A DNA stretch of 64,000 bases, from positions 1,755-65,754 of the forward strand of contig CAZCYH010000017.1 in the NCBI GenBank assembly GCA_964502925.1. Direction: 5' to 3'. Positions 7,501-38,771 of this stretch are shown here, one piece after another. The notes below the pieces were generated by a model. The model ran no database searches, was not told the DNA's origin, and saw only the letters and a list, made by a program, of their open reading frames with translations. How positions within the stretch are numbered: the first letter of the stretch is position 1; each line of letters begins with the position of its first letter. This DNA comes from an uncultured Leptospira sp. GTDB taxonomy: Bacteria > Spirochaetota > UBA4802 > JAGODF01. The translations under genes were made by a program, and so were the position numbers.

Positions 7501-9173
7501 GTCAGTGTCATCACCAGATCCTCACGGACCGAGTCGATAGGAGGATTGGTCACCTGGGCAAACGCCTGTTTGAAATAATTGAAAAGGCGCTGGGGTTTAT
7601 CGGACAGCACAGCAAGCGGGGTATCGGTGCCCATTGAACTTGTGGGTTCCTGTGCGGTTTCGGCGGTTGTTTTAATAATCAGTTCAATATCTTCCCTTGT
7701 GTAACCGTGCATGAGTTGCAACCGCAACAGGGCATCCTGCAACATCTCCTCGCTCCCTTCGCCAGCGTAGGGGATATTCTCGAACAGCACCCTGTTTTCC
7801 TCAACCCACTGTGCGTACTGTTTCTGCCGGGACATCTCCTGCTTGATTTCTTTATCGGGAATTATTCTGCCTTGCTTCGTGTCCACCAGGAGCAGTTTGC
7901 CGGGCATAAGACGCCCTTTCGCGCGCACTTCATCGGCACGAAAGTCCTGCACGCCGACTTCCGAACCCATGACGATGATATCGTTTTTGGTGATGACATA
8001 TCGGGAAGGGCGAAGCCCGTTTCGGTCGAGCGTTCCGCCCACGAATCGCCCGTCGCAGAAGACAATGCTCGCAGGGCCATCCCAGGGCTCCATAAACGCG
8101 GCATGATATTCATAAAAATATTTCAATTCCTGCGGAATTGGATTCTTATCGTTCCATGATTCGGGAATGAGCATCATAAGGGTATGCGGGAGCGTGCGTC
8201 CCGCCATCATCAGAAATTCAATAGCATTATCGAGCGAAGCGGAATCGCTTTTCTCTGGCTCAATGACGGGAAGGGCATACTTTATTGACTCGCCAAACAA
8301 ATCCGATATAAAATCCGATTCCCGCGCCGACATCCAGAAGCGGTTTCCCTTGATGGTATTTATCTCTCCGTTGTGCGAAATGATACGGAAAGGCTGTGCC
8401 AGCGCCCATGCCGGAAACGTGTTGGTGCTGAAACGGGAGTGCACCATCGCGATGGCGCTGGTGAGCCGTTCATCCTGAAGTTCACGGTAATACTTCCTGA
8501 GCTGGTGCGGCATAAACATGCCTTTATACACAATCGTCTTTGAAGAAAGGGTTACGATGTAAAAATTTTCCTTGCCCGCAATTTCAGAGGTGCGGACATT
8601 TTGTTCGGCGATTTTCCTGGCAAGAAAGAGTTTCCTTTCAAGCGCTTCATTCGATGCGCCATCCGCATCAGCAATAAATACTTGAAGAATCCTCGGTTCT
8701 GATTGTTTTGCTATCTCTCCCAGGACAGAGCTATCGACATCAATATCCCTCCAAGCGAGGATGCGAAGGCGCATGTTCACAAGTACCGATTCAAATATCT
8801 GCTGGAGCGAACCTTGCGCGATGGTGTTTTTCGGGAAAAAAACCAGCCCTGTTCCATAGCTGCCTTCATCCGGAAGGTTCTCGATTTGTTCTGAGTAGAA
8901 CTGATGCGGGATCTGCAGCATAATTCCCGCCCCATCACCAGTTCGGTTATCGGAGCTCTCAGCACCCCGATGTTCCATTCGTTCGAGTACTTCGAGCCCC
9001 CGGCGGACGATATCATGGGATTTTTTCCCTTTGATATGCGCCACAAAACCGATTCCGCAGGAATCGTGCTCATGCTCGTACGAATACAGTCCCTTTATGC
9101 GTTGCTCTGCCGACATTTCGCAATTATCCTCCGTAGCGTCTTTTACTACCTCTGCAGCAAGCATACTATACAT
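4572..9173 (-). CDS. gltB: Glutamate synthase large subunit, alpha chain.
   Basis: 1533 aa with four recognisable domains. These are the N-terminal Ntn amidotransferase (HEHDSCGIGFVAH), the central domain, the FMN-binding domain and the C-terminal GXGXG domain. Forms an operon with gltD. Confidence 0.95.
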   Translation of the reverse strand: MYSMLAAEVVKDATEDNCEMSAEQRIKGLYSYEHEHDSCGIGFVAHIKGKKSHDIVRRGLEVLERMEHRGAESSDNRTGDGAGIMLQIPHQFYSEQIENLPDEGSYGTGLVFFPKNTIAQGSLQQIFESVLVNMRLRILAWRDIDVDSSVLGEIAKQSEPRILQVFIADADGASNEALERKLFLARKIAEQNVRTSEIAGKENFYIVTLSSKTIVYKGMFMPHQLRKYYRELQDERLTSAIAMVHSRFSTNTFPAWALAQPFRIISHNGEINTIKGNRFWMSARESDFISDLFGESIKYALPVIEPEKSDSASLDNAIEFLMMAGRTLPHTLMMLIPESWNDKNPIPQELKYFYEYHAAFMEPWDGPASIVFCDGRFVGGTLDRNGLRPSRYVITKNDIIVMGSEVGVQDFRADEVRAKGRLMPGKLLLVDTKQGRIIPDKEIKQEMSRQKQYAQWVEENRVLFENIPYAGEGSEEMLQDALLRLQLMHGYTREDIELIIKTTAETAQEPTSSMGTDTPLAVLSDKPQRLFNYFKQAFAQVTNPPIDSVREDLVMTLTSFMGRQLNLLDETPEHCRMIKFLRPIFRNSDVEKLRHYQNPDFKAVIIPIVFPASNDAHCLSDAMDEICAEAEKVIDAGHTIIILSDKKADATNAPIPSLLACAGVHHHLIRVKKRTRAALVIETAEAREVMHMALLFGYGADAVNPYGAIATIRNLHSRQYFPKEMSYDKAVENFIKANEKALLKVLSKMGISTLRSYRGAQVFEALGLGNEVIEKYFTGTPSRIGGIGIREIAWEALMSHRTAFDDDIRIIPSEGVYAYRKYGEKHAWNPVTIHLLQWAVRKGDYQKFKEFSAAVNADNSRPHVIRGLFDFAARESAPIDEVEPVEAIMKRLTTGAMSFGSISKEAHETIAIAMNTIGGRSNSGEGGEDPERYVPKSDGTFFRSAIKQVASGRFGVTSTYLAHADELQIKMAQGAKPGEGGQLPGHKVNKIIAKTRHSTPGVTLISPPPHHDIYSIEDLAELIFDLKNANPNARISVKLVSETGVGTVAAGVAKAHADNILISGYDGGTGASPLSSIKHAGIPWEIGLSETHQTLVANKLRGRVRLQTDGQLKTGRDVVIAAILGAEEFGFGTATLITLGCVMMRKCHMNTCPVGVATQDPELRKRFRGKPEHVVNYFTFIAMEVRELMASLGIRKFDDLIGRTELLKMREVSHWKARFLNLSSLLYRNGSVADSARYCVEKQVHKIDRVIDRTLVEKAMPVIKGETGAKLYVEMPIKNTDRATGAMLSYYISKKYGDAGLADDTIECVFRGSAGQSFGAFLTRGITFRLEGDANDYFGKGLSGGKLIALPPKDVEFSADENIIVGNTVLYGATSGETYIRGIAGERFCVRNSNAIAVVEGTGDHCAEYMTGGRILVLGRVGRNFAAGMSGGIAYVLDVDGNFDYFCNKGMVDLSPVRDFEDQDFIIELLRKHYRYTGSAIAERILREWHAYVPKFVKVIPFEYKRALQEQMIEQIELKLKRIREEEQLEVHD

Positions 9174-9373: not shown

Positions 9374-10126
9374 TTATTTCCTTAGATACCCTTTCGATTT
9401 TAATGCACCAATAATCGCATCAATTATTTCCTGATCGGTAAAACGCGCCACGTTTATGGTGATATCGTATGAAGCGGGATTTTCCGCGTCGAACTTAATA
9501 TATTGATTGAGAAAATCATGTCGTTCGCGGTCCTTTTTCTCTACGAACTTTTCCGCTTCAAGCTTGTCCTTGAAGGAACCCACTTCCATAATCTTCTTGA
9601 TGCGGTACGACAGCGGCGCCACAAACCTCAAGTGCAGTCCGTATTTCAGACCGCGCGTGATGACCACCCCCGCCCTTCCCACAATGATAGCTCTTCCGTG
9701 AATGCAGAGGCCGCGTACCGTCTTGACTAGCTGTTTGTAGGCGGTCACCTGGGGAGGATAGTCGGTGAGAAAGCCCCTCATGAGTTCGGTCATTTCTTCG
9801 CGCTTTTTCGTGTCGATGGTTTCAATGAGTTTTTCGGATACTCCGGTATCCTTAACAATTTCCTCAAGAAGATTTCTGTCGTACGCTTCCCAGTTTTCTA
9901 CTCCTTCGAACTCATTAAGCGCTTTTGATAGCTGCTTTGCAAGTGGACTCACCACGCAGCCGTATTCCCGCGAAATGGTTATAAACGGCCTCACCGGCTC
10001 TTCTTTCGTTTCTTCGATTTTTTTGTAGTTTTCCCAGTACTTGACCTGTTTTTGAATCAGCTTTTCGAGAGTTGAACCTTTAATGTAGCTCATACGCGCG
10101 CTCCTTGCCAGGATTTTAGAAAACAA
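9374..10126 (-). CDS. Cytidylate kinase-like family protein (P-loop NMP-kinase fold).
   Basis: ITISREYGCVVSPLAKQLSKAL and AIIVGRAGVVI resemble the Cytidylate_kin2 family. The true start may be an internal Met (MSYIKG). Confidence 0.55.
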   Translation of the reverse strand: MFSKILARSARMSYIKGSTLEKLIQKQVKYWENYKKIEETKEEPVRPFITISREYGCVVSPLAKQLSKALNEFEGVENWEAYDRNLLEEIVKDTGVSEKLIETIDTKKREEMTELMRGFLTDYPPQVTAYKQLVKTVRGLCIHGRAIIVGRAGVVITRGLKYGLHLRFVAPLSYRIKKIMEVGSFKDKLEAEKFVEKKDRERHDFLNQYIKFDAENPASYDITINVARFTDQEIIDAIIGALKSKGYLRK

Positions 10127-10242
10127 TAATCACCGCATATGCATGTGCTTTGCCAACAGGAGAAAAGAACACAACCGAAAATGACTTTATCCATGCTACA
10201 AAAGTAGCCTTTTTTCATCAATAATTAATTTTTTATGAATGC

Positions 10243-12918
10243 TTGATAATTATGAAATTCATGACAAAAAAATTTTTTTCTTGCATTTTCCTCACAATGC
10301 TTTATAATAAAAAACTTCAGCAGGTCATTATCTGTATTGTATATATCACCCGATGTGCGTGCGTTTCCAGAATCATCCGGGTACCACTAACCCAATTTGG
10401 CGTATGTATGCTTGATAATATATTTTCAAAAAGTAAACTCACCGACGAGGTGATCGAAATTCTTCATCATATTCCCGACATGGTGATAATTGCAGGTGCG
10501 GATAAAAAAATTCTTTTTGCCAACCAGACGGCGGAACGGATGTTAGGCTCCGAAAATAATTCACTCAAAGGCAAAGACATAACCAGCGTTCTCAGCGATA
10601 AAATTTCTCAATTCCCTGAATGCCTACGGAAAGCAATCGGAACTTATAGCAATTTAGACCCCATCGATACATCACTTTTAACTTCCGACGGCCCCACTCC
10701 CGTCAATCTTTCCATAAAAAAAATTTCCGGCAAAAACAGGAAAGCTACTTTAGCCATCATCGCTCGCGATACCAGCAAAACAAAAATACTCAGCGAAGAA
10801 AAAAAGGAACGAATGCTTGCCGTAAGCGCTCTCATCGAAAGCGAGGAACGGTACCGACAGATAGTGCACACCATCGAGGACGGCTTTTTCGAAGTTGACC
10901 TTGGGGGCAATTTGACTTTTTTCAACGAAGCTCTACAGAAAATTATTGGGCATAGCGCTGAGCGTTTGCGGGGCATGAATTACCGTGAATTCATGGACGA
11001 TAAAAACGCAAAAGAGGTTTATAAATCATTTAACCGGGTCTTCCGCACTGGAATTTCCGAAAAAGCTTTCGACTGGGAGATAATTTCGGCCGACGGCAGC
11101 CGTCACATTGTCGAAACATCAATATCGCTCATTTGTCAGCACGGTGGAAAACCGAGCGGCTTTCGCGGCATCGTCCGCGACATCACCGAGCGCAAGGAAG
11201 TCGAACGAAAACTCAGGCAAAGCGAAGAGCGCCTCAAACAGAGCGAAGAGCGGTACCGATCGCTCGCGGAAAACAGTTCCGACATCATCAGCGAAGTGGA
11301 TATGGAAGCGCAATATACCTATATCAGTTCAAACGTGAAGGAAATTTTAGGTTACACCCCCAGTGAGGTTGTCGGACATCGGTTTACCGATTTCATTCAT
11401 CCCGAAGATTTGAGCAAAGCTGAACGAGTCTGGCGCGAACGCGTGCAGGATTTCACCCTTCGTTTCAGAAGCAAATCCGGTCAGTGGCGCTGGCTCGACT
11501 GCGCTTCGCGGACTTTCAGCCTCTCCGACGGCAGGGAGCGCGTCGTTACCATCTCCCGCGATGTAACCGAACGTAAGATCGAAGAAGAAAAATACCGCGA
11601 AAATGAAATGCGCCTTCGCCTTCAGCAGATGGCTCTTGCAGAACTTGCAAAGAATGAATCGCTCTACCGTGGCGACGTGCGCGCCGCGTTTGTGACTATC
11701 AACATGGTCGCCTGCCACAATCTAAATGCTACTGCTAGCAGTATCTGGCTCTTTGAAAATGAAGTAGAATTTTTTGCCCGATGCTACGATCGTTTTAATT
11801 CAAAGGATAACACGCATTCAGAAGGCGAAATAATTGATTTCTCTAAACATACAGATATTCTCAAAGTTCTGGACGCGCTCCGAATCATCGAGCTTCGCAA
11901 TGATACCGAAGAGAATTCGCATCTAAACTTCCTTCACGATTATTCCCGCATCCAAACTGTCACCATGATCGTGCTCATTTCGTTTCGCCTCGGAGGAAAT
12001 ACCATCGGGATCATCGCAATTGAAGAATGGGAAACCAGCCGCACGTGGTCGAGCGAAGAAAAGCAATTCGCGGCTTCGCTTGCGGATTTTGCTTCGCTTG
12101 CAATGGAAACACACAATCGTAAAATAGCCGAAGAATCGCTCCGGTTCAGCGAAGAGATGCTCCGCAAGCGCAACGAAATGATCGAAAAAGACCTTAAAAA
12201 CGCGCAGATCATACAAAAGGCGCTTTTGCCGAATTCCATACCGCCCGCGGAAAATATTCGCATGGAATATAAAAATTTCTCCGTGGACGCGGTGGGAGGC
12301 GATTATTTTTCGTTCACACCTTTGAAAGAAGGAGGTCTTGGAGTATTCATCGGAGATGTTTCAGGGCATGGGGTATCCGCCGCACTTTTCCTTTCGCTTT
12401 TGAAAGCAACTGCAGACCGGGCTTGTCGCCAATTCGGACAGAGCCCCAGGGAATTCATTGAATATCTCAATCGGGAACTCATCGAAACCATGCCGCACTA
12501 TTTTGTGACCGCCATATACGGATACTTCTCCAAACCAAATGCTGATGGTTCCATCAAGTTCACCTTTTCTAAAGGCGGACACCCCAATCCGATCATACAG
12601 TGGAAATCTACCGGAAAAATTGAAATGCTGCGCTGCCGGGGAACAATTTTGGGAAAATTTGATCATGCAAAATACGAAGAAATATCCCTCATACTCCAGC
12701 CGGGGGATCGTATTTTCCTCTACACCGACGGCCTACCGGAAATGACCAACCCGGAAAAACAGATGTTAGGGTTCAACGAGCTTGTTAATCTCATCGAAGA
12801 GTGCGTAAAAGACGACCTTAAAGAAACGCTCCACGCTATACTCCTCGAAGCAGACTCCTTCCGGAAAGGCGCGGATATCGAAGACGATATCGTACTCATC
12901 GGGCTCGAAGTGTTGTGA
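10243..12918 (+). CDS. Multi-PAS/GAF sensor fused to a PP2C-type (SpoIIE/RsbU-like) serine phosphatase. The true start may be the internal ATG at 10408 (MLDNIFSK).
   Basis: Repeated PAS S-box segments and a GAF-like segment. The C-terminus has PP2C motifs (GGDYFSF...FIGDVSGHGVSAALF...LYTDGLPE). Confidence 0.8.
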   Translation: MIIMKFMTKKFFSCIFLTMLYNKKLQQVIICIVYITRCACVSRIIRVPLTQFGVCMLDNIFSKSKLTDEVIEILHHIPDMVIIAGADKKILFANQTAERMLGSENNSLKGKDITSVLSDKISQFPECLRKAIGTYSNLDPIDTSLLTSDGPTPVNLSIKKISGKNRKATLAIIARDTSKTKILSEEKKERMLAVSALIESEERYRQIVHTIEDGFFEVDLGGNLTFFNEALQKIIGHSAERLRGMNYREFMDDKNAKEVYKSFNRVFRTGISEKAFDWEIISADGSRHIVETSISLICQHGGKPSGFRGIVRDITERKEVERKLRQSEERLKQSEERYRSLAENSSDIISEVDMEAQYTYISSNVKEILGYTPSEVVGHRFTDFIHPEDLSKAERVWRERVQDFTLRFRSKSGQWRWLDCASRTFSLSDGRERVVTISRDVTERKIEEEKYRENEMRLRLQQMALAELAKNESLYRGDVRAAFVTINMVACHNLNATASSIWLFENEVEFFARCYDRFNSKDNTHSEGEIIDFSKHTDILKVLDALRIIELRNDTEENSHLNFLHDYSRIQTVTMIVLISFRLGGNTIGIIAIEEWETSRTWSSEEKQFAASLADFASLAMETHNRKIAEESLRFSEEMLRKRNEMIEKDLKNAQIIQKALLPNSIPPAENIRMEYKNFSVDAVGGDYFSFTPLKEGGLGVFIGDVSGHGVSAALFLSLLKATADRACRQFGQSPREFIEYLNRELIETMPHYFVTAIYGYFSKPNADGSIKFTFSKGGHPNPIIQWKSTGKIEMLRCRGTILGKFDHAKYEEISLILQPGDRIFLYTDGLPEMTNPEKQMLGFNELVNLIEECVKDDLKETLHAILLEADSFRKGADIEDDIVLIGLEVL

Positions 12919-28898: not shown

Positions 28899-29567
28899 TT
28901 TTTTAATATTTTCGAGGCGCGGGAGAACTTCTTTATGAAAATCTGTCATGTTCGTTTCATTTGCATAGTCGCGATTGTGTATCTCTTGGCGATCGCATTT
29001 TGTTCATGCACGGAGAAATTATCGGGCGCTTACGAAAATGAATTGCTTTTCTGGAAGGAGCAGTCGCGAGCACACAAAATACTCAACGATGCCATTGCAG
29101 CGCAAACTCACGTCGTCCTGAGCAGTGGACATTGCTGATTTTCACCGGCGATCATGAAACCGGCTCACCTTCATTCAGCTATTATAAAACCGGGAGCAAA
29201 CTCTTTTTCAACAACAAACAGGCTTCGAACTATTCGTTCCCAATAATCGAATTGATAAAACCTTTCACCCGGCAGAAGCGATCAATACGATCAATTTTCT
29301 CGGAGGCTACATCACCGGAAGATCTGAGAAAAAAAAATTCACGAAAACATTTCAATAAAAATGACAGGCGATGATGCTGAGAAAACTTATGGGCACCTCC
29401 AAAAACTTTGATAAAAAGAAAGCGGTTTTACATATATATTGTGCTCCAGAGGGAATATCCTTTAAAACAGTTTGTAGAACTTCCCTCATAAAGCTATTGA
29501 AAGGCGAAATCCAAGATGCTGAGAAATTCACCCGCGTAAGCGATAAATCAATCACGCATTTCGGCAA

Positions 29568-31082
29568 TCAGAACTCCAGCAGATTTTTCGTTGAAAAGCT
29601 CGGGTCAGAGGTGCAATTGATGCCGAGCTTCCGCAAGCCTGCATCGTCTCCCGGCGTCGGTATGTGAGTCATGTGCATCTCGCAGTTTCTCAAATCCCGC
29701 AGTTTGTCCATCGCGTCCATCGCCGCAGGATTTGTTCCCGCGCTTATAGCAAGTGCAATGAGCGTTTCTTCAAGATCAAGGCTTATCGTTTTGCTACCGA
29801 GAACAGTTCCTTTCAGATTTCTGATCGATTCTATGATTTGCGGGGAAAGCAAATGTATTCTGTCGGGGATGCCAGCAAGCGTTTTAATCGCATTCAGCAC
29901 CAGCGCCGGGGCGGCGTGCAAAAGAGGAGAGTTTTTGCCGGTGATAATTGTCCCGTCGGAAAGTTCTATCGCCGCGCCGCAGTAAATGCCGTCGTTGCCC
30001 TTCCTCTGTTCAGAAGCTTCCAAAGCAGCCTTGCGCGCCGGCACAACGACACTTCGATATTCTGGAGTTAAATTGAGCTCGTTCATTATCATTTCCACGC
30101 GCTGTACGGTTTGTTTATCCGCGAAACCCAACGCGTACTCACACGAATAGCGGAAATAGCGGCGAACAATCTCCTGCCTGGCTGCTTCGCATACCGCTTC
30201 ATCATCGATGATGCCAAAACCCGCCCTGTTGACGCCCATGTCGGTAGGAGAACGATACAGTTCTCCATCGCCGCCAATTTTTTTCAAAATGAGCCGCAGA
30301 ATGGGAAAAGTCTCCACATCCCGATTGTAGTTTATGGCTACTTTCCCGTATGCCTCAAGATGAAAGGGATCGATGAGATTGTAATCACCAATATCGGCAG
30401 TTGCCGCCTCATAGGCAATATTGACCGGATGCTTAAGGGGAATACTCCAGATGGGGAATGTTTCGAATTTTGCATAACCGCTCTTAATACCGCGGCGATG
30501 TTCATGATATATCTGCGACAGGCAGGTCGCCATCTTTCCGCTGCCAGGCCCCGGGCCTGTCACCACCACAAGGGGACTTTTAGTTTCAATATACTCATTG
30601 GCGCCATATCCTTCTTCGCTCACCACCAGATCAACATTGCCCGGATAGCCTTTTGTGTATCGATGCGTATATACGCGGATGCCCTGGCGCTCGAGCTTGT
30701 TTTTAAAAATTGAGGCTGCCGGCTGATTTTCATACCGCGTGATGACTACCGCTAAAATATTGATTCCCCAGTCATTGAGATCATCGATGAGCTTCAACGC
30801 GTCAGCATCGTCGGTGATGCCGAAATCCGCCCTGACTTTTTTCCGCTCAATATCGCCGGCATAGATACAGAGAATGATGTCGGCGTTCGCGCTCAGTTCC
30901 TGCAGCAAATGCATTTTGACATTGGGATCGAAACCAGGAAGGACTCGGGCTGCATGATAATCGTACAGGAGTTTGCCTCCAAATTCAAGGTACAGCTTAT
31001 TGTTAAACTTCGCAACGCGTTCAAGAATCGCCTCCTTTTGCTCGCCAAGATACTTTTTGTTATCGAACCCGATTTTTCTCAT
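29568..31082 (-). CDS. UPF0371 / DUF1846 family protein.
   Basis: The N-terminus MRKIGFDNKKYL...LYLEFGGKLLYDYHAARVLPGFDPN and VVVTGPGPGSGKMATCLSQ match the family signature. Confidence 0.8.
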   Translation of the reverse strand: MRKIGFDNKKYLGEQKEAILERVAKFNNKLYLEFGGKLLYDYHAARVLPGFDPNVKMHLLQELSANADIILCIYAGDIERKKVRADFGITDDADALKLIDDLNDWGINILAVVITRYENQPAASIFKNKLERQGIRVYTHRYTKGYPGNVDLVVSEEGYGANEYIETKSPLVVVTGPGPGSGKMATCLSQIYHEHRRGIKSGYAKFETFPIWSIPLKHPVNIAYEAATADIGDYNLIDPFHLEAYGKVAINYNRDVETFPILRLILKKIGGDGELYRSPTDMGVNRAGFGIIDDEAVCEAARQEIVRRYFRYSCEYALGFADKQTVQRVEMIMNELNLTPEYRSVVVPARKAALEASEQRKGNDGIYCGAAIELSDGTIITGKNSPLLHAAPALVLNAIKTLAGIPDRIHLLSPQIIESIRNLKGTVLGSKTISLDLEETLIALAISAGTNPAAMDAMDKLRDLRNCEMHMTHIPTPGDDAGLRKLGINCTSDPSFSTKNLLEF

Positions 31083-32203: not shown

Positions 32204-32231
32204 GCTTCCGATACTACCTCATATTTCATAA

Positions 32232-32259
32232 AAAGAGCCCTCAAAAGGCTCTTTTTTTA
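32232..32259 (+). terminator. Rho-independent terminator whose stem is built from the REP-like motif.
   Basis: aaaagagccc-tcaaaa-ggctctttttt. Confidence 0.55.
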
Positions 32260-32293
32260 TGTCTGCAATTCACAGTATCGCATTGAAAGAATA

Positions 32294-32357
32294 GGGCTCT
32301 GCCCCCCATGGGCTACATGGGTTATAATTCATTGTTTTTGTGAGGCTCTGACCCCCC
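32294..32357 (+). repeat. Two direct copies of the REP-like motif GGGCTCTG(C/A)CCCCCC upstream of the RAYT gene.
   Basis: gggctctgcccccc at 32294-32307 and gaggctctgacccccc at 32342-32357. Confidence 0.55.
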
Positions 32358-32456
32358 AGAAAAAAAAATTTTAAAAAACTGAAAATTTTTTTATGTTTAA
32401 GCCATCTTTTTCGTATTAATAGGTGAAGGGCAATATTATAATTTCAGAGGAGGTGT

Positions 32457-33056
32457 GTGATGCCGCGTCCTTATCGCATTCAAGAACCGGAATTAACCTA
32501 TCATATTGTTTCCCAATGCATCGAATGGCGCGATATGATTGCTGATGAGGAAATAAAAGAACTCTTTCTGGAAGTACTCCGGCGAAGCAGGCAAAAATAC
32601 GAATATCGCCTCATTGCATATTGCATCATGCCTAATCACATTCATCTCGTTATTCACACCATGCGCGAAGGCGCACAAATATCAAAAATTGTACAGTATA
32701 TTAAAGCGCGATTTGCGGAAATGTATAATAAACTCCTGAAGAGAACTGGACCTTTCTGGAATGGCCGATATAAAGATAGCATAATTCAATTCGCAAGGGA
32801 TGCATGTCATTATTTGCTGTGGCTTATCTGGTACCTGGCTTTTAATCCTGTGCGGAAAAGATTATGCGCAAATCCATTGAAGTATCGTTATAGCAGTATC
32901 CGGGCATATCTTGAGGAAGGTGCTGATGTGGGAGTACCAATTGAACATCATGACTTTTTTTTGAAACTTGGAAATACCTTCAAAGAGCGAGTGAAAAATT
33001 TTCTTCGGTACGAAGAAATGTATCGGAAGCGGCATGCGATTTTTGACTGGGTATAG
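32457..33056 (+). CDS. REP-associated tyrosine transposase (RAYT, IS200-like Y1/HuH transposase).
   Basis: HuH motif MPNHIHLVI. The catalytic Tyr region FWNGRYKDSII matches the RAYT/IS200 W-x-x-R-Y pattern. It is flanked by inverted REP-like palindromes and has a GAGGAGG ribosome-binding site. Confidence 0.75.
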   Translation: MMPRPYRIQEPELTYHIVSQCIEWRDMIADEEIKELFLEVLRRSRQKYEYRLIAYCIMPNHIHLVIHTMREGAQISKIVQYIKARFAEMYNKLLKRTGPFWNGRYKDSIIQFARDACHYLLWLIWYLAFNPVRKRLCANPLKYRYSSIRAYLEEGADVGVPIEHHDFFLKLGNTFKERVKNFLRYEEMYRKRHAIFDWV

Positions 33057-33300
33057 GTCATTGCAGTTTACTCAATGTTAAAGCAAAGCCTCTTTTCGTC
33101 ACACTACACGCCAGTAAATAAATCAATTTTTTATCCGCACAAAAGTCAGTTTTTTTAACCAACCAATACAATAAGAAGCAACCGGTTTTACCCTAATAAC
33201 ATCAACAACCACTTGAATAAATCTCGTACGATTTCAAACATTAATTGAAACCAAATTTTCTTAAGCTTTCTCGTGTGAGTTCGATGGTTTTTCAGGGTCA

Positions 33301-33358
33301 AAGCCTGTTGGAGGCTTGGAGAAGGGTCAGAGCCCATTGGGGTAGAGAGCCCTTTTGT
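33301..33358 (-). repeat. REP-like motifs in inverted orientation downstream of RAYT (GGGTCAGAGCCC and GGGGTAGAGAGCCC).
   Basis: 33330-33341 is the reverse complement of GGGCTCTGACCC. Related copies lie at 33301-33311 and 33345-33358. Confidence 0.5.
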
Positions 33359-33436
33359 GGATACTTTTCTGACTACAGGATTTCCTCTTGACAGATATCC
33401 ATGATGACGCGGTTGATAGATGATGGATGAATCAAT

Positions 33437-34921
33437 ATGAGTGTACCGATTACCTACATTGACTTCTTGATGATTCTCGCCCTAACTTTGCTCGTATCCA
33501 TCGCAATCTCGGTGTATATCCATAACAGATTCAGCAACGTAAACCGGCTTTTTTCGCTTTTTATTCTCAATGTAACCGCCTGGCTCTTCCTGTCAATGAT
33601 CCATTTCTTGTTCAGACAGCACCTCGCCGTACTTCTGTCGTTTCAGACGGCCGTAGGCTCGTTTATGGGAATTACATTTTTCTATTTTGCCCTGGTTATC
33701 GTCGATGAACAGCATGTGAGACGACGCTGGGAAAATGCCCTCGCTATCGTACCCGCGGCAATTGCAGGATGGTATATCATTACCATCATCCACCCTGACC
33801 TCCTGGCGGATTTCAACGACCGTGTGCGCTATGAAGGGATTAAGCTTCATCGACCGGGAGACATGGCCTATTGGGCATACACGACGTGGCTTTTTTCAGC
33901 CTTCATTATGGGGTATGGCGTCCTCATATCCGGATTGCGCAGAAAAGGCGATACACAGGCGCGGAAACGCATTCGCAATGTCCTTTGGGCAAGCATACTT
34001 GGGCAGCTTACCACCTTGGGCATCAGTAACTTATCGTCAATTCTCGGTCTTGGCCAGCCTGGCTGGATCGCCTTGATGCCCATTCTGGCTTCTCTTTGCT
34101 GGATTGGTGTTTCAATCATCAGGGATAAGATATGGACGGTGGAATATCTTCTCGAAGTAATTCGGCAAAGCGAGGAAAAACTCGGCGAGCGCAACCGCAT
34201 TATCGAAGCTGACCTTGAGCTGGCTCGTCTGATTCAGAAAAAACTCCTCCCCGATAAGGTCCCACAGCTACCCGGTCTCGGAGTACACGCGGTGTATCTC
34301 CCGGTAGATAAAGTGGGTGGTGATTACTATGATTTCATCGTGGAACGTAACGTCCTGGGAGTTTTGCTTGCGGACGTAAGCGGCCATGGCATCGCAAGCG
34401 CATTTCTCTCTTCCATAATTAAAATGGGATTTAATTATCATGCAGGAAGCAACGGCCCCACGCTTTTTAAGACCCTGGACCGTCTCGTGGCCGAGAAAGG
34501 CGCTAATTCCATGTTCGCAACAGCAGTGTTCTGCAGAATTGATACCGACACCATGAGGCTTACAAGCTGCCGCGCCGGTCACTGCCCGCCACTTGTTATC
34601 AGGAGCGGTTCAGGAGAAATAGTGTCCATTGAAACGCCCGGCAGGGCATTGGGGATGAATCTGGGAGAGCCCCGTTACCAAATTGGTGAAATTGAGCTCT
34701 CTCGGGGTGACAGGATTTTTCTCTATACCGATGGTGTCACCGAAACAATAAACTCTGACAGGGCGCTTTTCGGCGAAGAACGGCTAAAGAATGCATTGCG
34801 TGAAGGGATGGGGTACGCGCTGGAAGAATTCTGCGAAAAACTTCTCGCTAAGCTAAAGGAATTTTCCGGGGACAATCCCCAAGTCGACGACATCACCATT
34901 ATAGCGGTGGAAGTAAAATAG
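33437..34921 (+). CDS. Membrane-anchored PP2C-type (SpoIIE/RsbU-like) serine phosphatase with a multi-TM sensor domain.
   Basis: About 7 TM helices at the N-terminus. C-terminal PP2C motifs GGDYYDF...LLADVSGHGIASAFL...LYTDGVTE. Confidence 0.8.
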   Translation: MSVPITYIDFLMILALTLLVSIAISVYIHNRFSNVNRLFSLFILNVTAWLFLSMIHFLFRQHLAVLLSFQTAVGSFMGITFFYFALVIVDEQHVRRRWENALAIVPAAIAGWYIITIIHPDLLADFNDRVRYEGIKLHRPGDMAYWAYTTWLFSAFIMGYGVLISGLRRKGDTQARKRIRNVLWASILGQLTTLGISNLSSILGLGQPGWIALMPILASLCWIGVSIIRDKIWTVEYLLEVIRQSEEKLGERNRIIEADLELARLIQKKLLPDKVPQLPGLGVHAVYLPVDKVGGDYYDFIVERNVLGVLLADVSGHGIASAFLSSIIKMGFNYHAGSNGPTLFKTLDRLVAEKGANSMFATAVFCRIDTDTMRLTSCRAGHCPPLVIRSGSGEIVSIETPGRALGMNLGEPRYQIGEIELSRGDRIFLYTDGVTETINSDRALFGEERLKNALREGMGYALEEFCEKLLAKLKEFSGDNPQVDDITIIAVEVK

Positions 34922-34976
34922 GAGAAGACGATTCTGTATTACGTAAACGCTTTTATAACGTTTCCATCAGAGTTTT

Positions 34977-35193
34977 GGAGCTCTGCCCCAAAAAAAATTT
35001 TATGCTTTCGCCATCCCATGCGTATTAATAATTGAAGGGACAAATTTTCTTGAACCTGGGGTATATCATGGCACGGAAAAATTGTATTCAGCAACCAAAC
35101 TTAAACTATCACATCGTTTCGCAGTGTCTCGAATGGTGCGATATGATGGAAGAAGAGCATGAGATCGTCCCTCATTTAGTTGAAATTATTTAG
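34977..35193 (+). pseudogene. Truncated, diverged second copy of the REP plus RAYT 5' region (a RAYT N-terminal remnant, 41 codons).
   Basis: 34977-35070 aligns with 32342-32456: the REP motif ggagctctgcccc, then an A-run, then gcgtattaataattgaaggga. ORF 35068-35193 encodes MARKNCIQQPNLNYHIVSQCLEWCDMMEEEHE, matching RAYT residues 6-35, then stops. Confidence 0.55.
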
Positions 35194-35811
35194 CATCACC
35201 TCCGCGCCATCTCTTCACTCGATGCGCAAACCTCTCAAAATGGCTATTCAGACTTTTGATCGGATTCGTTGAATACACGGTCTTGTAAAGAAGCGGTGAC
35301 ACGTTGACGTCGCCGCCAACTTCATAGCCATCGATAAAAATTATTGGAAAATACCGATCAATGGGACGCTCATTGAACTCCTTCAGCACCTTCGCGCTTG
35401 CCCAAATGTAATGGCGGCGTATGCTCGATTTTTCGATACCATTGCAATCACCTCGCGTTGGTAAAGGTCATGCAAATCTTCTCTTGAGACAATAAGGTCG
35501 TACATCGCAAAAAGCTTCTGTAATTCTTTTTACATGGTGGATAATGGCACCGCTACGGCATTTACGTCCACATCGTCGTTCAATACCGGGAAAGGCACCA
35601 CCATCTACTACAGCGAATACGAAATCAGCGATATTGATTCGCTTTCAGTGTCGGTTACCACTTCCGATACGGCGAATTTTCTTGCGATCCACGTATATAA
35701 AAATGGATCAAAAGTCAAAGAATCGGTAAACGCATCAGTGAGCTCGCTTTCATTGACCTACGAGTATGATGAATAACACTGGAAACGCTATGCCGCGGAG
35801 TGCATTTTTTG

Positions 35812-36509: not shown

Positions 36510-38771
36510 ATGGTGTGTACCATGAAAAAAACGATCATGATTATCGGAGGAGGCCTCCTCCAGGTTCCGCTCATTCAAACGGCACAGAGAATGGGGCTTT
36601 CAACCATTGTCACCGATTACAACCCGAATGCTATCGGCATGAAATATGCCGATATTCCGATTGTGATGAGCACGCGCGACATTGAGGGGTCAGTGCGCGT
36701 CGCGCGCTCGCAGAATGAAATCACTCCCATCAGCGCGGTACTGACGGCTGGGACGGACGCCTCGATGACCGTAGCGGCAGTGGCAAACGCGCTGGGATTG
36801 CCTGGTATCCGCTTTGAGGACGCAGAGGCGGCCACCAATAAAATCAAAATGCGCATGCGCCTCACCGAACATCATGTGCCATGCCCAAAATTTCTGCCCG
36901 TCTGGTCGCTTGCCGATGCCAAGCGCGCCTGTCAGATTTTAAAATTTCCGGTGGTGATGAAGCCCGCCGACAACATGGGTGCCCGCGGCGTGATGCGCAT
37001 CGATTCGAAATCAAAAATTGCCGAGGCCTTTCATTTCGCAAAAAGCGCCTCTCCGAGCGGCGAACTCATCATCGAAGAGTTTATGGAAGGGTCAGAGCTT
37101 TCCATCGATGCGGTCATCTACAACGGCGAAATCACCATCACTGGCGTGGCAGACCGCATCATCGAGTATCCGCCGTATTTCGTAGAAACTGGCCATACCA
37201 TGCCATCGCATCTGCCGAAAGAGCTTCAGGATGCGGCCTGCGAGGTCTTCAAAAAAGGGGTCAGAGCCCTCGGAATCAACCCCGGATGCGCCAAAGGCGA
37301 CATCAAAATCACCGAAAACGGAGCAATGGTGGGCGAAATTGCTGCGCGCCTTTCCGGCGGTTTCATGTCGGCCTATACCTATCCCCTTTCCACTGGCGTC
37401 AATCTCCTGCAGGCCGCAATCGAGGTTGCCCTGGGGCATGAGCCATCTAATTTAGAGCCGCTGTATCATAAGGTGAGCATTGAGCGAGCCATCATCGCTG
37501 AGCCCGGAATTGTGCGGCGCATAACCGGCCTTGAAGAAGCGCTCAAGGTTCCCGGCATCGAAGAAATCTTTATGAACGTCAAACCCGGTGACCGCATCAT
37601 TCGCCCCCGCTCAAATGTTGAAAAGGCCGGCCATATCATTGCCGTTGCTCAAACGCTTGAAGAAGCCGAGCAGGCGGTGAAGCGGTGCAAAGAACTCATC
37701 CGCATTGAAGTTTTCTCCGGCGATGAAATCAGCATGGAGGCAATCAACCTTTCCGCGCGCGAAAAGCTGAAAAAATTCTGCTATGTCTGCAAATCCTGCG
37801 ACGGGAAGGACTGTCCAAGCGGCGTGCCCGGCATGGGGGGCATTGGCAGCGGGTCATCGTTTCGAAGCAACATCGAAGCTTTAAAAAAATATAAAATTTC
37901 CACGCGCATCATCCACAATGTCACTGCTCCTGATACATCAACCACCTTTTTCGGGCAAAAACTCTCCTTCCCGGTCATGGCCGCACCCATCACCGGCACA
38001 GTCACCAACATGGGCGGCGCAATGGATGAGCTTGAGTACAACCGTGCCGTTGTCAAAGGCTGCATAGACGCCGGGACCATCGCCTTTGTAGGCGATGGCG
38101 CAACTCCCGATAAGTACAAACTGGGCCTTCAAGCCCTTGCGGAATACGAAGGAACGGGCGTGCCGATTTTTAAACCCAGAAGCAACAACAGGGAAATCAT
38201 CGAGAGAATCAAAGCCGCCGAAAAAGTGCATTCCATCGCAGTTGGCATCGACATTGACGCGCTGGTATTCAAGACCATGGCGATGAAAAACCAGCCTGTC
38301 GGCCCAAAAAGCATCGAGGCACTGAGAGAGATAATCTCGACAACCGAAATTCCTTTTATTCTTAAAGGAATTATGAATGCGCATGATGCTGTTCTGGCAG
38401 TTGAAGCCGGCGCCCATGCAATCGTCGTTTCCAACCACGGAGGGCGCGTACTCGATGAAATGGCCGGCTCTATGGATGTCCTCGAAGATATTGTGGAGGA
38501 AGTGAGAGGAAGAATACGTATCCTCATCGATGGCGGTTTTCGGACAGGCGTTGATGTACTGAAAGCCCTGGCTCTCGGCGCAGACGCGGTGCTGATTGGA
38601 CGCCCGATTGCCATTGCCGCGGTCGGCATGGGTGCTCGAGGTGTTTCATTCTACCTTGAGCGGCTCCATCACGAATTTGAGCAGGCAATGATACTGACGG
38701 GCTGTCAGACAGTGGCCGACATCTCAAGAGAAATCGTGAGAAAAAACGGAACCGTCGGTGTAAAATCGTAA
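36510..38771 (+). CDS. Fusion protein: an N-terminal ATP-grasp domain joined to a C-terminal FMN-dependent alpha-hydroxy-acid dehydrogenase / oxidase-like TIM barrel.
   Basis: Residues 1-400 look like ATP-grasp (MIIGGGLLQ; carboxylate-amine-ligase-like). Residues 430-753 carry FMN-dehydrogenase motifs (ILKGIMNAHDA, VVSNHGGRVLD, IDGGFRTGVDVLKALALGADAV). Confidence 0.7.
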   Translation: MVCTMKKTIMIIGGGLLQVPLIQTAQRMGLSTIVTDYNPNAIGMKYADIPIVMSTRDIEGSVRVARSQNEITPISAVLTAGTDASMTVAAVANALGLPGIRFEDAEAATNKIKMRMRLTEHHVPCPKFLPVWSLADAKRACQILKFPVVMKPADNMGARGVMRIDSKSKIAEAFHFAKSASPSGELIIEEFMEGSELSIDAVIYNGEITITGVADRIIEYPPYFVETGHTMPSHLPKELQDAACEVFKKGVRALGINPGCAKGDIKITENGAMVGEIAARLSGGFMSAYTYPLSTGVNLLQAAIEVALGHEPSNLEPLYHKVSIERAIIAEPGIVRRITGLEEALKVPGIEEIFMNVKPGDRIIRPRSNVEKAGHIIAVAQTLEEAEQAVKRCKELIRIEVFSGDEISMEAINLSAREKLKKFCYVCKSCDGKDCPSGVPGMGGIGSGSSFRSNIEALKKYKISTRIIHNVTAPDTSTTFFGQKLSFPVMAAPITGTVTNMGGAMDELEYNRAVVKGCIDAGTIAFVGDGATPDKYKLGLQALAEYEGTGVPIFKPRSNNREIIERIKAAEKVHSIAVGIDIDALVFKTMAMKNQPVGPKSIEALREIISTTEIPFILKGIMNAHDAVLAVEAGAHAIVVSNHGGRVLDEMAGSMDVLEDIVEEVRGRIRILIDGGFRTGVDVLKALALGADAVLIGRPIAIAAVGMGARGVSFYLERLHHEFEQAMILTGCQTVADISREIVRKNGTVGVKS

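Follow-up and report, generated by a model that had tools for sequence, protein, structure and literature searches.

A probable TIRtron with a RAYT-type transposase gene, and the 5' stub of a second copy, around a PP2C phosphatase gene in an uncultured Leptospira sp.

The transposase gene and its flanking motifs

A stretch of 64,000 nucleotides from an uncultured Leptospira sp. (contig CAZCYH010000017.1), referred to here as the window, encodes on its forward strand an intact Y1 HUH transposase of RAYT/TIRYT type (32460..33056, 198 residues). The gene lies downstream of an alpha/beta-hydrolase gene, is flanked by short motifs that are direct on its left and inverted on its right, and is followed by a gene for a membrane phosphatase of the SpoIIE/PP2C type and by the beginning of a second RAYT gene. 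The name TIRtron has been given to RAYT-like genes that lie between terminal inverted repeats, and their enzymes are termed TIRYTs (Di Nocera et al. 2013, PMC3733652). The locus is likely to comprise one intact TIRtron, made up of a RAYT-like, TIRYT-type Y1 HUH gene with its own upstream block and inverted motif ends, together with a 215-nucleotide (nt) 5' stub of an element of another lineage, the PP2C gene being a bystander.

The product of the gene matches the Pfam family Y1_Tnp (E-value 4e-15) and contains the segments NHIHLVIH and FWNGRY. A genome scan for homologs of the transposase has yielded 80 loci, which are designated by L-numbers. In an alignment of 26 homologs with identities of 28–83%, N59, H60, H62, Y125 and N129 do not vary, and at least 90% of the sequences have P130. 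The HuH motif is thus H60-I-H62 and the catalytic tyrosine is Y125 of YLAFNP, a combination of HuH with Y-x3-NP. The protein scores 82.8 bits against the NCBIfam model REP_Tyr_transpos (NF047646, cut-off 80 bits) and 37.8 bits against the IS200 model (NF033573, cut-off 55 bits). When the family profile is compared with the PDB, Escherichia coli TnpA_REP (4ER8) is matched with an E-value of 6e-13 over residues 1–148, tyrosine motif included, the YLAFNP region being aligned to YIYINPV of 4ER8. IS200-type TnpAs are matched in the same search over the N-terminal half only (E-value about 3e-4). A PDB search with the single sequence gives weak matches, all of them to IS200-type TnpAs (E-value about 1e-3). 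The AlphaFold (AF2) model of the transposase has a pLDDT of 92.9 and its top PDB match in Foldseek is again 4ER8 (E-value 5e-8, TM-score 0.74 on the target), followed by the TnpAs of ISDra2 and IS608; sequence identity to 4ER8 is about 15%.

The protein is not found to cluster with conventional IS200 TnpA and is therefore assigned, on its sequence and modelled fold, to the RAYT (TnpA_REP) type rather than the IS200 type, as the initial annotation had proposed. Judging from its catalytic residues and fold, it would cleave and join single-stranded DNA in a sequence-specific manner through a covalent 5'-phosphotyrosine. The ratio of nonsynonymous to synonymous divergence (dN/dS) is 0.17 between the gene and its ortholog in a sister genome and 0.11 for a pair of paralogs, values that indicate purifying selection on the RAYT genes. 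The sister genome is a metagenome-assembled genome (MAG) represented by locus L001 (contig CAKZSV010000006.1), which is syntenic with positions 21877-42561 of the window at 85–93% identity. The deposited protein (P0002, 173 residues) begins at the internal Met26, 25 codons late with respect to 32460; the form of 198 residues is preferred because of the family alignment and a GGAGG ribosome-binding site at 32449-32453.

Two direct motifs precede the gene. The outer one, GGGCTCTGCCCCCC (32294..32307, + strand), differs from the core GCTCTGACCCC by an A>C change, and the orthologous position of L001 reads GGGCTCTGACCCC. The inner one, (G)AGGCTCTGACCCCCC (32343..32357, + strand), which from 32343 can also be written (A)GGCTCTGACCCCCC, starts 115 nt 5' of the ATG. 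It is followed by a conserved upstream block (32358..32459, + strand) that in an alignment of eight sequences of the window's subfamily consists of an A-run, TTTTATG, CGTATTAAT, GTGAAGGG and the GGAGG site, with CGTATTAAT (32412-32420) invariant in all eight. The block is presumed to provide the promoter and the 5' untranslated region; a sigma-70 scan gave no convincing site in it.

On the right side an AT-rich spacer, whose sequence is not conserved among paralogs, extends from the stop codon to the right motifs (33057..33294); every copy of the window's subfamily nevertheless has such a spacer, 240–330 nt long. A structured RNA in the flanks or the spacer was considered and rejected, the Rfam search of these regions having given no match. 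The spacer ends at a degenerate inverted motif, GGGTCAAAGCC (33295..33305, - strand), that is also conserved in L001. Next comes the right end motif AGGGTCAGAGCCC (33323..33335, - strand), which reads GGGTCAGAGCCC from 33324, and then a second, imperfect inverted copy, GGGGTAGAGAGCCC (33339..33352, - strand). Right-end motifs in pairs are also seen in L002, L004 and L005. Two direct copies on the left and two inverted copies on the right had been annotated at first. The left pair stands, as does the right copy at 33324, while the copy at 33339 is imperfect and the degenerate one at 33295 is a third. The consensus of the window copies is (A/G)GGCTCTG(A/C)CCCC, with two direct copies 5' and two to three inverted copies 3' of the gene. 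With at most two mismatches allowed, the window contains 6 copies of the 13-mer where 1.36 would be expected, and none of 100 shuffled sequences reached 6.

The hydrolase, RAYT and PP2C genes have the same order in L001, and the two genomes differ by the gain or loss of whole motif units: L001 is longer than the window by a 44-nt unit that contains a third left motif and, on the right, by 21 nt. The intergenic site of the element, which separates the terminator of the hydrolase gene from the PP2C gene, was already occupied when the lineages of the window and the sister genome diverged. Synonymous divergence between the window and L001 is 0.118 for the RAYT gene (32460-33056 vs 10001-10594), 0.209 for the PP2C gene and 0.342 for the hydrolase gene.

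Relatives, unit boundaries and the nature of the repeats

About 30 relatives with the same motif at both ends have been identified in MAGs of the Spirochaetota type. The sister MAG encodes three further full-length paralogs at 75–83% amino acid identity (at least 4 copies), at least 5 RAYT copies are found in DAOLVF01 and at least 9 in JBBFLA01, and six contigs of CALEUQ01 end inside a RAYT gene. Paralogs within MAGs share 72–94% nucleotide identity. Every complete family copy has one to four direct GCTCTGACCCC motifs upstream, the innermost lying 86–148 nt 5' of the ATG, and an inverted GGGGTCAGAGC downstream, so that the layout of direct motif, gene and inverted motif recognised in the initial annotation is conserved in every family copy examined. 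In the subfamily of the Spirochaetota MAGs the inverted motif lies 7–28 nt past the stop codon. The window's subfamily has two inverted motifs, located about 240–371 nt past the stop codon after a spacer that is unalignable between paralogs. The core as extended from the seed CTCTGACC is A-(G/T)-G-CTCTGACC-C-C followed by T-rich sequence, and GGGGTCAG(AGCC) is present in 85 near-gene motif copies.

Similarity between paralogs begins 80–150 nt 5' of the ATG and extends a few nt beyond the stop codon; in the high-identity pairs checked, its limits are no more than 3 nt away from the motifs. In the pair L009 and L029, for example, the stretch that begins 141 nt 5' of the ATG and ends about 23 nt after the stop codon is 94.6% identical. 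Since similarity ends at the motifs, the gene, its upstream block and the motifs constitute a discrete repeated unit.

Many TIRtron repeats share the sequence GGGGWSAS and belong to moderately abundant families that occur as singles, dimers and clusters (PMC3733652). The element of the window is similar to TIRtrons in having a RAYT-like Y1 gene with inverted repeats other than GTAG hairpins of the REP (repetitive extragenic palindrome) kind, in the core of its repeat, GGGGTCAG, which matches GGGGWSAS exactly, and in the moderate abundance of its repeat family as singles, dimers and clusters. It is unlike the described TIRtrons in the direct arrays of 2–4 left motifs, in the many gene copies per genome and in the motif copies embedded in coding sequence, all of which are features of the window's family. 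Distant homologs from Lachnospiraceae and Planctomycetia are also accompanied by inverted repeats, which end in CTGTCCCC and have the polarity seen in the window. On these sequence comparisons the repeats of the window are classed as TIRtron-type inverted repeats and not as classical REPs.

Most TIRYTs have been placed in subclass 2.1 (Quentin et al. 2018, PMC6006769), the signature of which includes NHVH or NH[YF]H, W[EQ], YIELNP or Y[IV]HLNP, a length of about 238 residues and a C-terminal domain resembling a helix-turn-helix (HTH) (PMC6006769). The transposase of the window, compared with this subclass by its published signature, has NHIH, WN and YLAFNP, is 198 residues long and has no detected HTH tail, no HTH family of Pfam being matched by the 198-residue protein. 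Owing to this mismatch the element is filed as a class-2 RAYT-like TIRtron outside the published 2.1 signature.

The initial annotation had described the locus as a classical REP–RAYT–REP arrangement. In a classical REPtron a domesticated, nearly single-copy RAYT disperses high-copy extragenic hairpins of the REP or REPIN kind, and the likeness to the E. coli REPtron (TnpA_REP, RAYT, YafM, 4ER8) is considerable: the protein is above the REP_Tyr_transpos cut-off and has 4ER8 as its best profile and fold match, it has Y-x3-NP and a W-containing segment, and its gene is bracketed by mutually inverted copies of the presumed cognate repeat. The exact 11-mer is also found 27 times in 360 kb of sequence away from the gene, where 0.17 copies are expected, and some copies form inverted doublets (L005 9821/9870; L138; L141). 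True GTAG REPs are moreover present at the RAYT genes of Ignavibacteria (L033, L037, L039-L045, L051, L055, L061), the nearest proteins outside the family (35–44% core identity, 195–205 residues). Their repeats, located 20–140 nt 5' of the start codon and 0–50 nt past the stop codon, consist of GTAG and a perfect hairpin (GTAGCACAGATTAnTAATCTGTGC), a structure that the window's family lacks.

The REPs of E. coli are imperfect palindromes of about 35 nt that have a GTAG foot and are extragenic, whereas the repeat of the window has a non-palindromic core of 11–13 nt. Inspection of the family flanks revealed no GT[AG]G foot at the end motif. Complementarity of the flanks over 132 motif instances is 2.59, against 2.55±0.09 in shuffled pairings, and motif arrays folded as single-stranded DNA are no better than their shuffles (z of -0.6 to -2.1). 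A hairpin with covarying flanks (AAGG..CCTT, ATG..CAT, GAGG..CCTC) was considered and rejected, as its signal vanished in the shuffle test over the same 132 instances. The E. coli TnpA_REP gene is single-copy, and RAYTs of groups 2 and 3 of Bertels are single-copy and vertically inherited; the family of the window is multi-copy, with at least 4–9 paralogs per MAG, and it is the whole unit that is repeated. The window copy itself is orthologous with that of L001. In the RAYT-proximal sequence sampled, dispersed copies of the motif lie mostly within open reading frames (ORFs), and only one distant perfect copy is present in the 64-kb window. A classical REPtron is therefore an improbable reading of the locus, and the repeats do not retain the name of classical REPs.

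In the TIRtron reading the unit is bounded by short arrays of the 12–13-nt motif (A)(G/T)GCTCTGACCCC. With direct motifs on the left and inverted motifs on the right, each strand reads 5'-GCTCTGACCCC...gene...GGGGTCAGAGC-3'. By analogy with E. coli TnpA_REP and with the TnpAs of IS608 and ISDra2, H60 and H62 would bind the metal ion, and single-stranded DNA would be nicked and rejoined by Y125 at the motif or next to it, on whichever strand the enzyme uses. Such a reaction would move the bounded unit or make copies of it, and would leave solitary, paired and arrayed motifs.

Several observations weigh against the identification as a TIRtron. The NHIH, WN, YLAFNP, length and undetected HTH of the transposase do not agree with subclass 2.1, in which most TIRYTs are placed. 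The closest outside relatives, those of Ignavibacteria, carry canonical GTAG REPs. No pair of empty and filled sites was found among the loci compared, a clean empty site being missing because the distant PP2C orthologs are not syntenic, and mobility of the unit is therefore argued from the paralog boundaries. As the spacer cannot be aligned, the right boundary in the window's subfamily is deduced from the conserved architecture. Finally, about 11 nt of the motif are conserved, and the weak GG...CC dyad intrinsic to it may act as a structural signal.

The element belongs to a class that has been described and sparsely studied, and its gene family is multi-copy and not a domesticated single-copy one. 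RAYT-like genes with GGGGWSAS inverted repeats have been catalogued twice only and have been the subject of no biochemical study. The present family, with dozens of copies, sharp ends and motif arrays, provides a comparative set for the recognition of non-hairpin ends by Y1 enzymes, and its close relatives with true GTAG REPs allow one to ask how REP-type and TIR-type systems interconvert.

Related motifs have also been noticed in other positions. In L011-L020, L026 and L030, which belong to the subfamily of the Spirochaetota MAGs, the motif TATGCTCTGACCCTACA occurs inside the RAYT ORF, about 406 nt from its beginning, where it is read as Y-A-L-T-L; the window copy does not have it. A metagenome scan with the 14-mer AGGCTCTGACCCCT returned at least 80 loci, mostly with single and probably chance matches, 13 of 80 being informative. 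The same 11-mer is present on metagenome contigs that come from other taxa, with a GC of 0.43-0.57 (L099 5677-7798; L138 1292/1356 and 3687/3748; L141 1344/1406; L136 2268-3020). Their forms include arrays with four direct copies and one inverted copy of the 11-mer, inverted doublets with a spacing of about 60 nt, and two motifs of opposite polarity (GGGG outward) that flank a RAYT-like gene of 30% identity.

Motif copies inside neighbouring coding sequence

A perfect 13-mer, GGGGTCAGAGCCC, is found in the window at 37257..37269 (- strand) inside the coding ORF 36510-38771, where it encodes G-V-R-A; it is conserved in 12 of 12 positions in L001. A 10-mer in the same ORF (37089-37098) differs from L001 by one substitution. 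The dispersal of the motif has been sampled in 360 kb of related MAG sequence and in the 64-kb window, a sample that is RAYT-proximal and gives small counts. More than 700 nt from any RAYT gene the exact 11-mer is about 150-fold over-represented in the 360 kb, and the 33 one-mismatch variants taken together account for 8 copies against 27 exact ones. Permuted 11-mers occur at a mean of 0.00–0.04 per genome set. There are no exact copies in 773 kb of unrelated genomes, and 41 kb from more distant relatives contain a single near-match, a 10-mer without the fourth C. The dispersed copies expected at first are thus present in related genomes, but the description of the repeats as extragenic is not supported by this sample, in which most of the dispersed copies lie inside long ORFs.

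These in-gene copies occur in each of the three frames and on either strand (GVRA, GSE, GQS; GSDP, ALTP), at native positions of ordinary proteins, among them radical-SAM, TonB-receptor and ATP-grasp proteins. Where one ortholog has the motif and another lacks it, the two are collinear and 1–5 substitutions apart, and for this reason an origin of the in-gene motifs by a 12-nt in-frame insertion was rejected. In six ortholog pairs the motif is retained at 12 of 12 positions while the flanks are 75–93% identical. The density of the motif per 10 kb is 43 within 0–150 nt of the gene, 2.2 at 1.5–2.5 kb, 0.4 at 7.5–10 kb and 0.2 beyond 10 kb, chance being 0.005. Two direct copies are often seen in one gene (L009 8110/8331; L026 1788/2009; L017 9855/10387; L023 1258/1950; and others).

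Short over-represented oligomers embedded in genes are familiar from Neisseria (DUS), Haemophilus (USS) and cyanobacteria (HIP1). The motif of the window is like these in having perfect short copies in coding sequence, in several frames, that arise by substitution. It differs in being far sparser (about 1 per 13 kb sampled) and in its gradient around the transposase gene. The 11–12-mer could in principle be a host genome signal, related to uptake, recombination or repair, that the element merely carries or targets. The perfect copies at native coding positions in three frames and on both strands, their origin by substitution and not insertion, their full conservation in the six ortholog pairs and the rarity of one-mismatch variants would fit such a signal. 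The fall in density with distance from the RAYT gene, the presence of the same GGGGWSAS-type core beside related genes in unrelated phyla, the absence of the 11-mer from the unrelated genomes with its near-absence from the distant relatives, and a sample drawn from RAYT-proximal sequence do not, and a host signal is considered very improbable.

It is tentatively suggested, with considerable doubt, that perfect 11–12-mers (GGCTCTGACCCC) are written into or selectively kept in neighbouring coding sequence by short-patch substitution, in a distance-dependent halo around each transposase gene. Were this so, and were the Y1 enzyme responsible, the motif would be spread at the DNA level by an activity for which RAYT/REP and TIRYT systems offer no described precedent. 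Candidate routes are a templated repair that follows the nicking of near-cognate sites and selection for enzyme-binding sites. A halo that proved genome-wide would bear on the seeding of short repeats. As the sample is RAYT-biased and the counts are small, the scatter of in-gene motifs is put forward as a preliminary observation.

The second copy, the phosphatase gene and the neighbourhood

A truncated second copy of the element that ends in a stop codon had been noted 3' of the phosphatase gene and is borne out by alignment. It occupies 34978-35193, where a motif is followed by some 75 nt of upstream sequence and some 41 codons, and its nucleotide identity to the first copy is approximately 70%. 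Its left end motif is GAGCTCTGCCCCA (34978..34990, + strand). The upstream block (34991..35067, + strand), which includes CGTATTAAT, aligns to that of the first copy at 73%, and the ORF stub of 41 codons followed by TAG (35068..35193, + strand) shares 51% identity over residues 1–40 in tblastn. The same A>C variant (GCTCTGCCCC) is seen in the motif of the second copy (34980-34989) and in the outer left motif of the first (32296-32305), the L001 ortholog of which keeps the usual A.

The stub is more closely related to L003 (77%), L002 (74%) and L005 (73%) than to the first copy (70%), and is therefore not a recent local duplicate. It would represent a second member of the family, of another lineage, that formerly lay just 3' of the PP2C gene and has been reduced to 215 nt of its 5' end. 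L001 has a different RAYT remnant at this site: about 45 nt past the PP2C stop codon (12531-12618) it carries the last 22 RAYT codons and 22 nt of downstream flank of the first-copy type. This fragment is 92% identical to the first copy of the window and 85% identical to the first copy of L001 itself, a pattern that suggests a past recombination or gene conversion between copies. The simplest reading is that an ancestral second element after the PP2C gene has decayed differently in the two lineages, the alternative being independent events.

The membrane PP2C gene between the two copies (33437..34921, + strand) is confirmed by a Pfam SpoIIE match (E-value 1e-43), and the N-terminus of its product has a weak match of the seven-transmembrane type. 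Its ortholog in L001 is 95% identical with a dN/dS of 0.12, similar to the neighbouring genes. PP2C orthologs at 60–61% identity are situated between a Na/Ala symporter gene on one side and AMP-binding genes on the other, with no RAYT nearby.

A duplication or recombination event centred on the phosphatase gene had been proposed at first, and the two RAYT copies could be taken for the termini of a composite or duplicated unit responsible for the movement or duplication of this gene. In the window the PP2C gene does have RAYT sequence in the same orientation on either side, and L001 likewise has a 3' fragment right after it. The affinity of the stub to other lineages, the different parts and affinities of the remnants in the window and L001, the RAYT-free surroundings of the distant PP2C orthologs and the evolution of the PP2C gene at the pace of its neighbours all speak against this, and Y1 HUH transposons are not known to form composite transposons. 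Such a unit has even less to commend it than a host signal, and nothing points to a move or duplication of the PP2C gene by the elements; it is an ordinary chromosomal gene and a bystander. For annotation, the PP2C gene can thus be treated as ordinary, the second copy as a decayed remnant and the deposited transposase start as 25 codons late.

The least credible alternative is a conventional IS200/IS605 insertion sequence with a TnpA_IS200 and subterminal hairpins, since, although the transposase resembles IS200/IS605 TnpAs such as those of IS608 and ISDra2 in its HUH/Y1 fold, its Pfam Y1_Tnp match, its weak single-sequence PDB matches, its multi-copy gene and its presumed single-strand nick-and-rejoin chemistry, it does not pass the IS200 model of NCBIfam (37.8 bits against 55), is aligned to such proteins over the HuH half only, has Y-x3-NP in place of their Y-x3-Q, lies between inverted repeats and not hairpins on one strand, and is not accompanied by the tnpB that they often have, none being present in the ORF list of the window.

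Upstream of the intact TIRtron, the hairpin annotated near 32232 is a real intrinsic terminator of the alpha/beta-hydrolase gene (32230..32256, + strand, terminator scan), with a DNA fold of -9.5 kcal/mol and a z of -5.35, and is conserved in L001. It has just 6–7 nt in common with the end motif (GGCTCT/AGAGCC, GGGCTCT). A reuse of the motif palindrome had been proposed at first; the hairpin, taken here as context and not as part of the element, may or may not be derived from a motif dimer.

Beyond the stub, a possible degraded remnant of an IS256/Mutator-type transposase has been identified at 35186..35389 (- strand), with a weak match to PF00872 (18.9 bits, cut-off 21). An IS256-like remnant at the truncation point was rejected as a candidate, as the match is below the Pfam threshold and a plasmid tblastn search gave none. 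The region of this IS256/Mutator-like fragment is also given as 35186-35505 (- strand), between the RAYT stub and a thioredoxin-like gene. A lipoprotein-like gene (35534-35776, + strand) is truncated at its 5' end in the window and intact in L001 (13528-13983); the fragment and this truncated gene mark a deletion scar.

Gene decay in this neighbourhood is reciprocal between the window and L001. An alkaline-phosphatase-like gene that is intact in L001 (7006-8493, 495 residues) has lost about 1 kb of its interior in the window (28935-29374), where it is split into ORFs of 67 and 80 residues and is therefore probably a pseudogene. Conversely, a gene of 504 residues in the window (29568-31082, - strand) is represented in L001 by an N-terminal remnant, an ORF of 116 residues (8316-8666, - strand).

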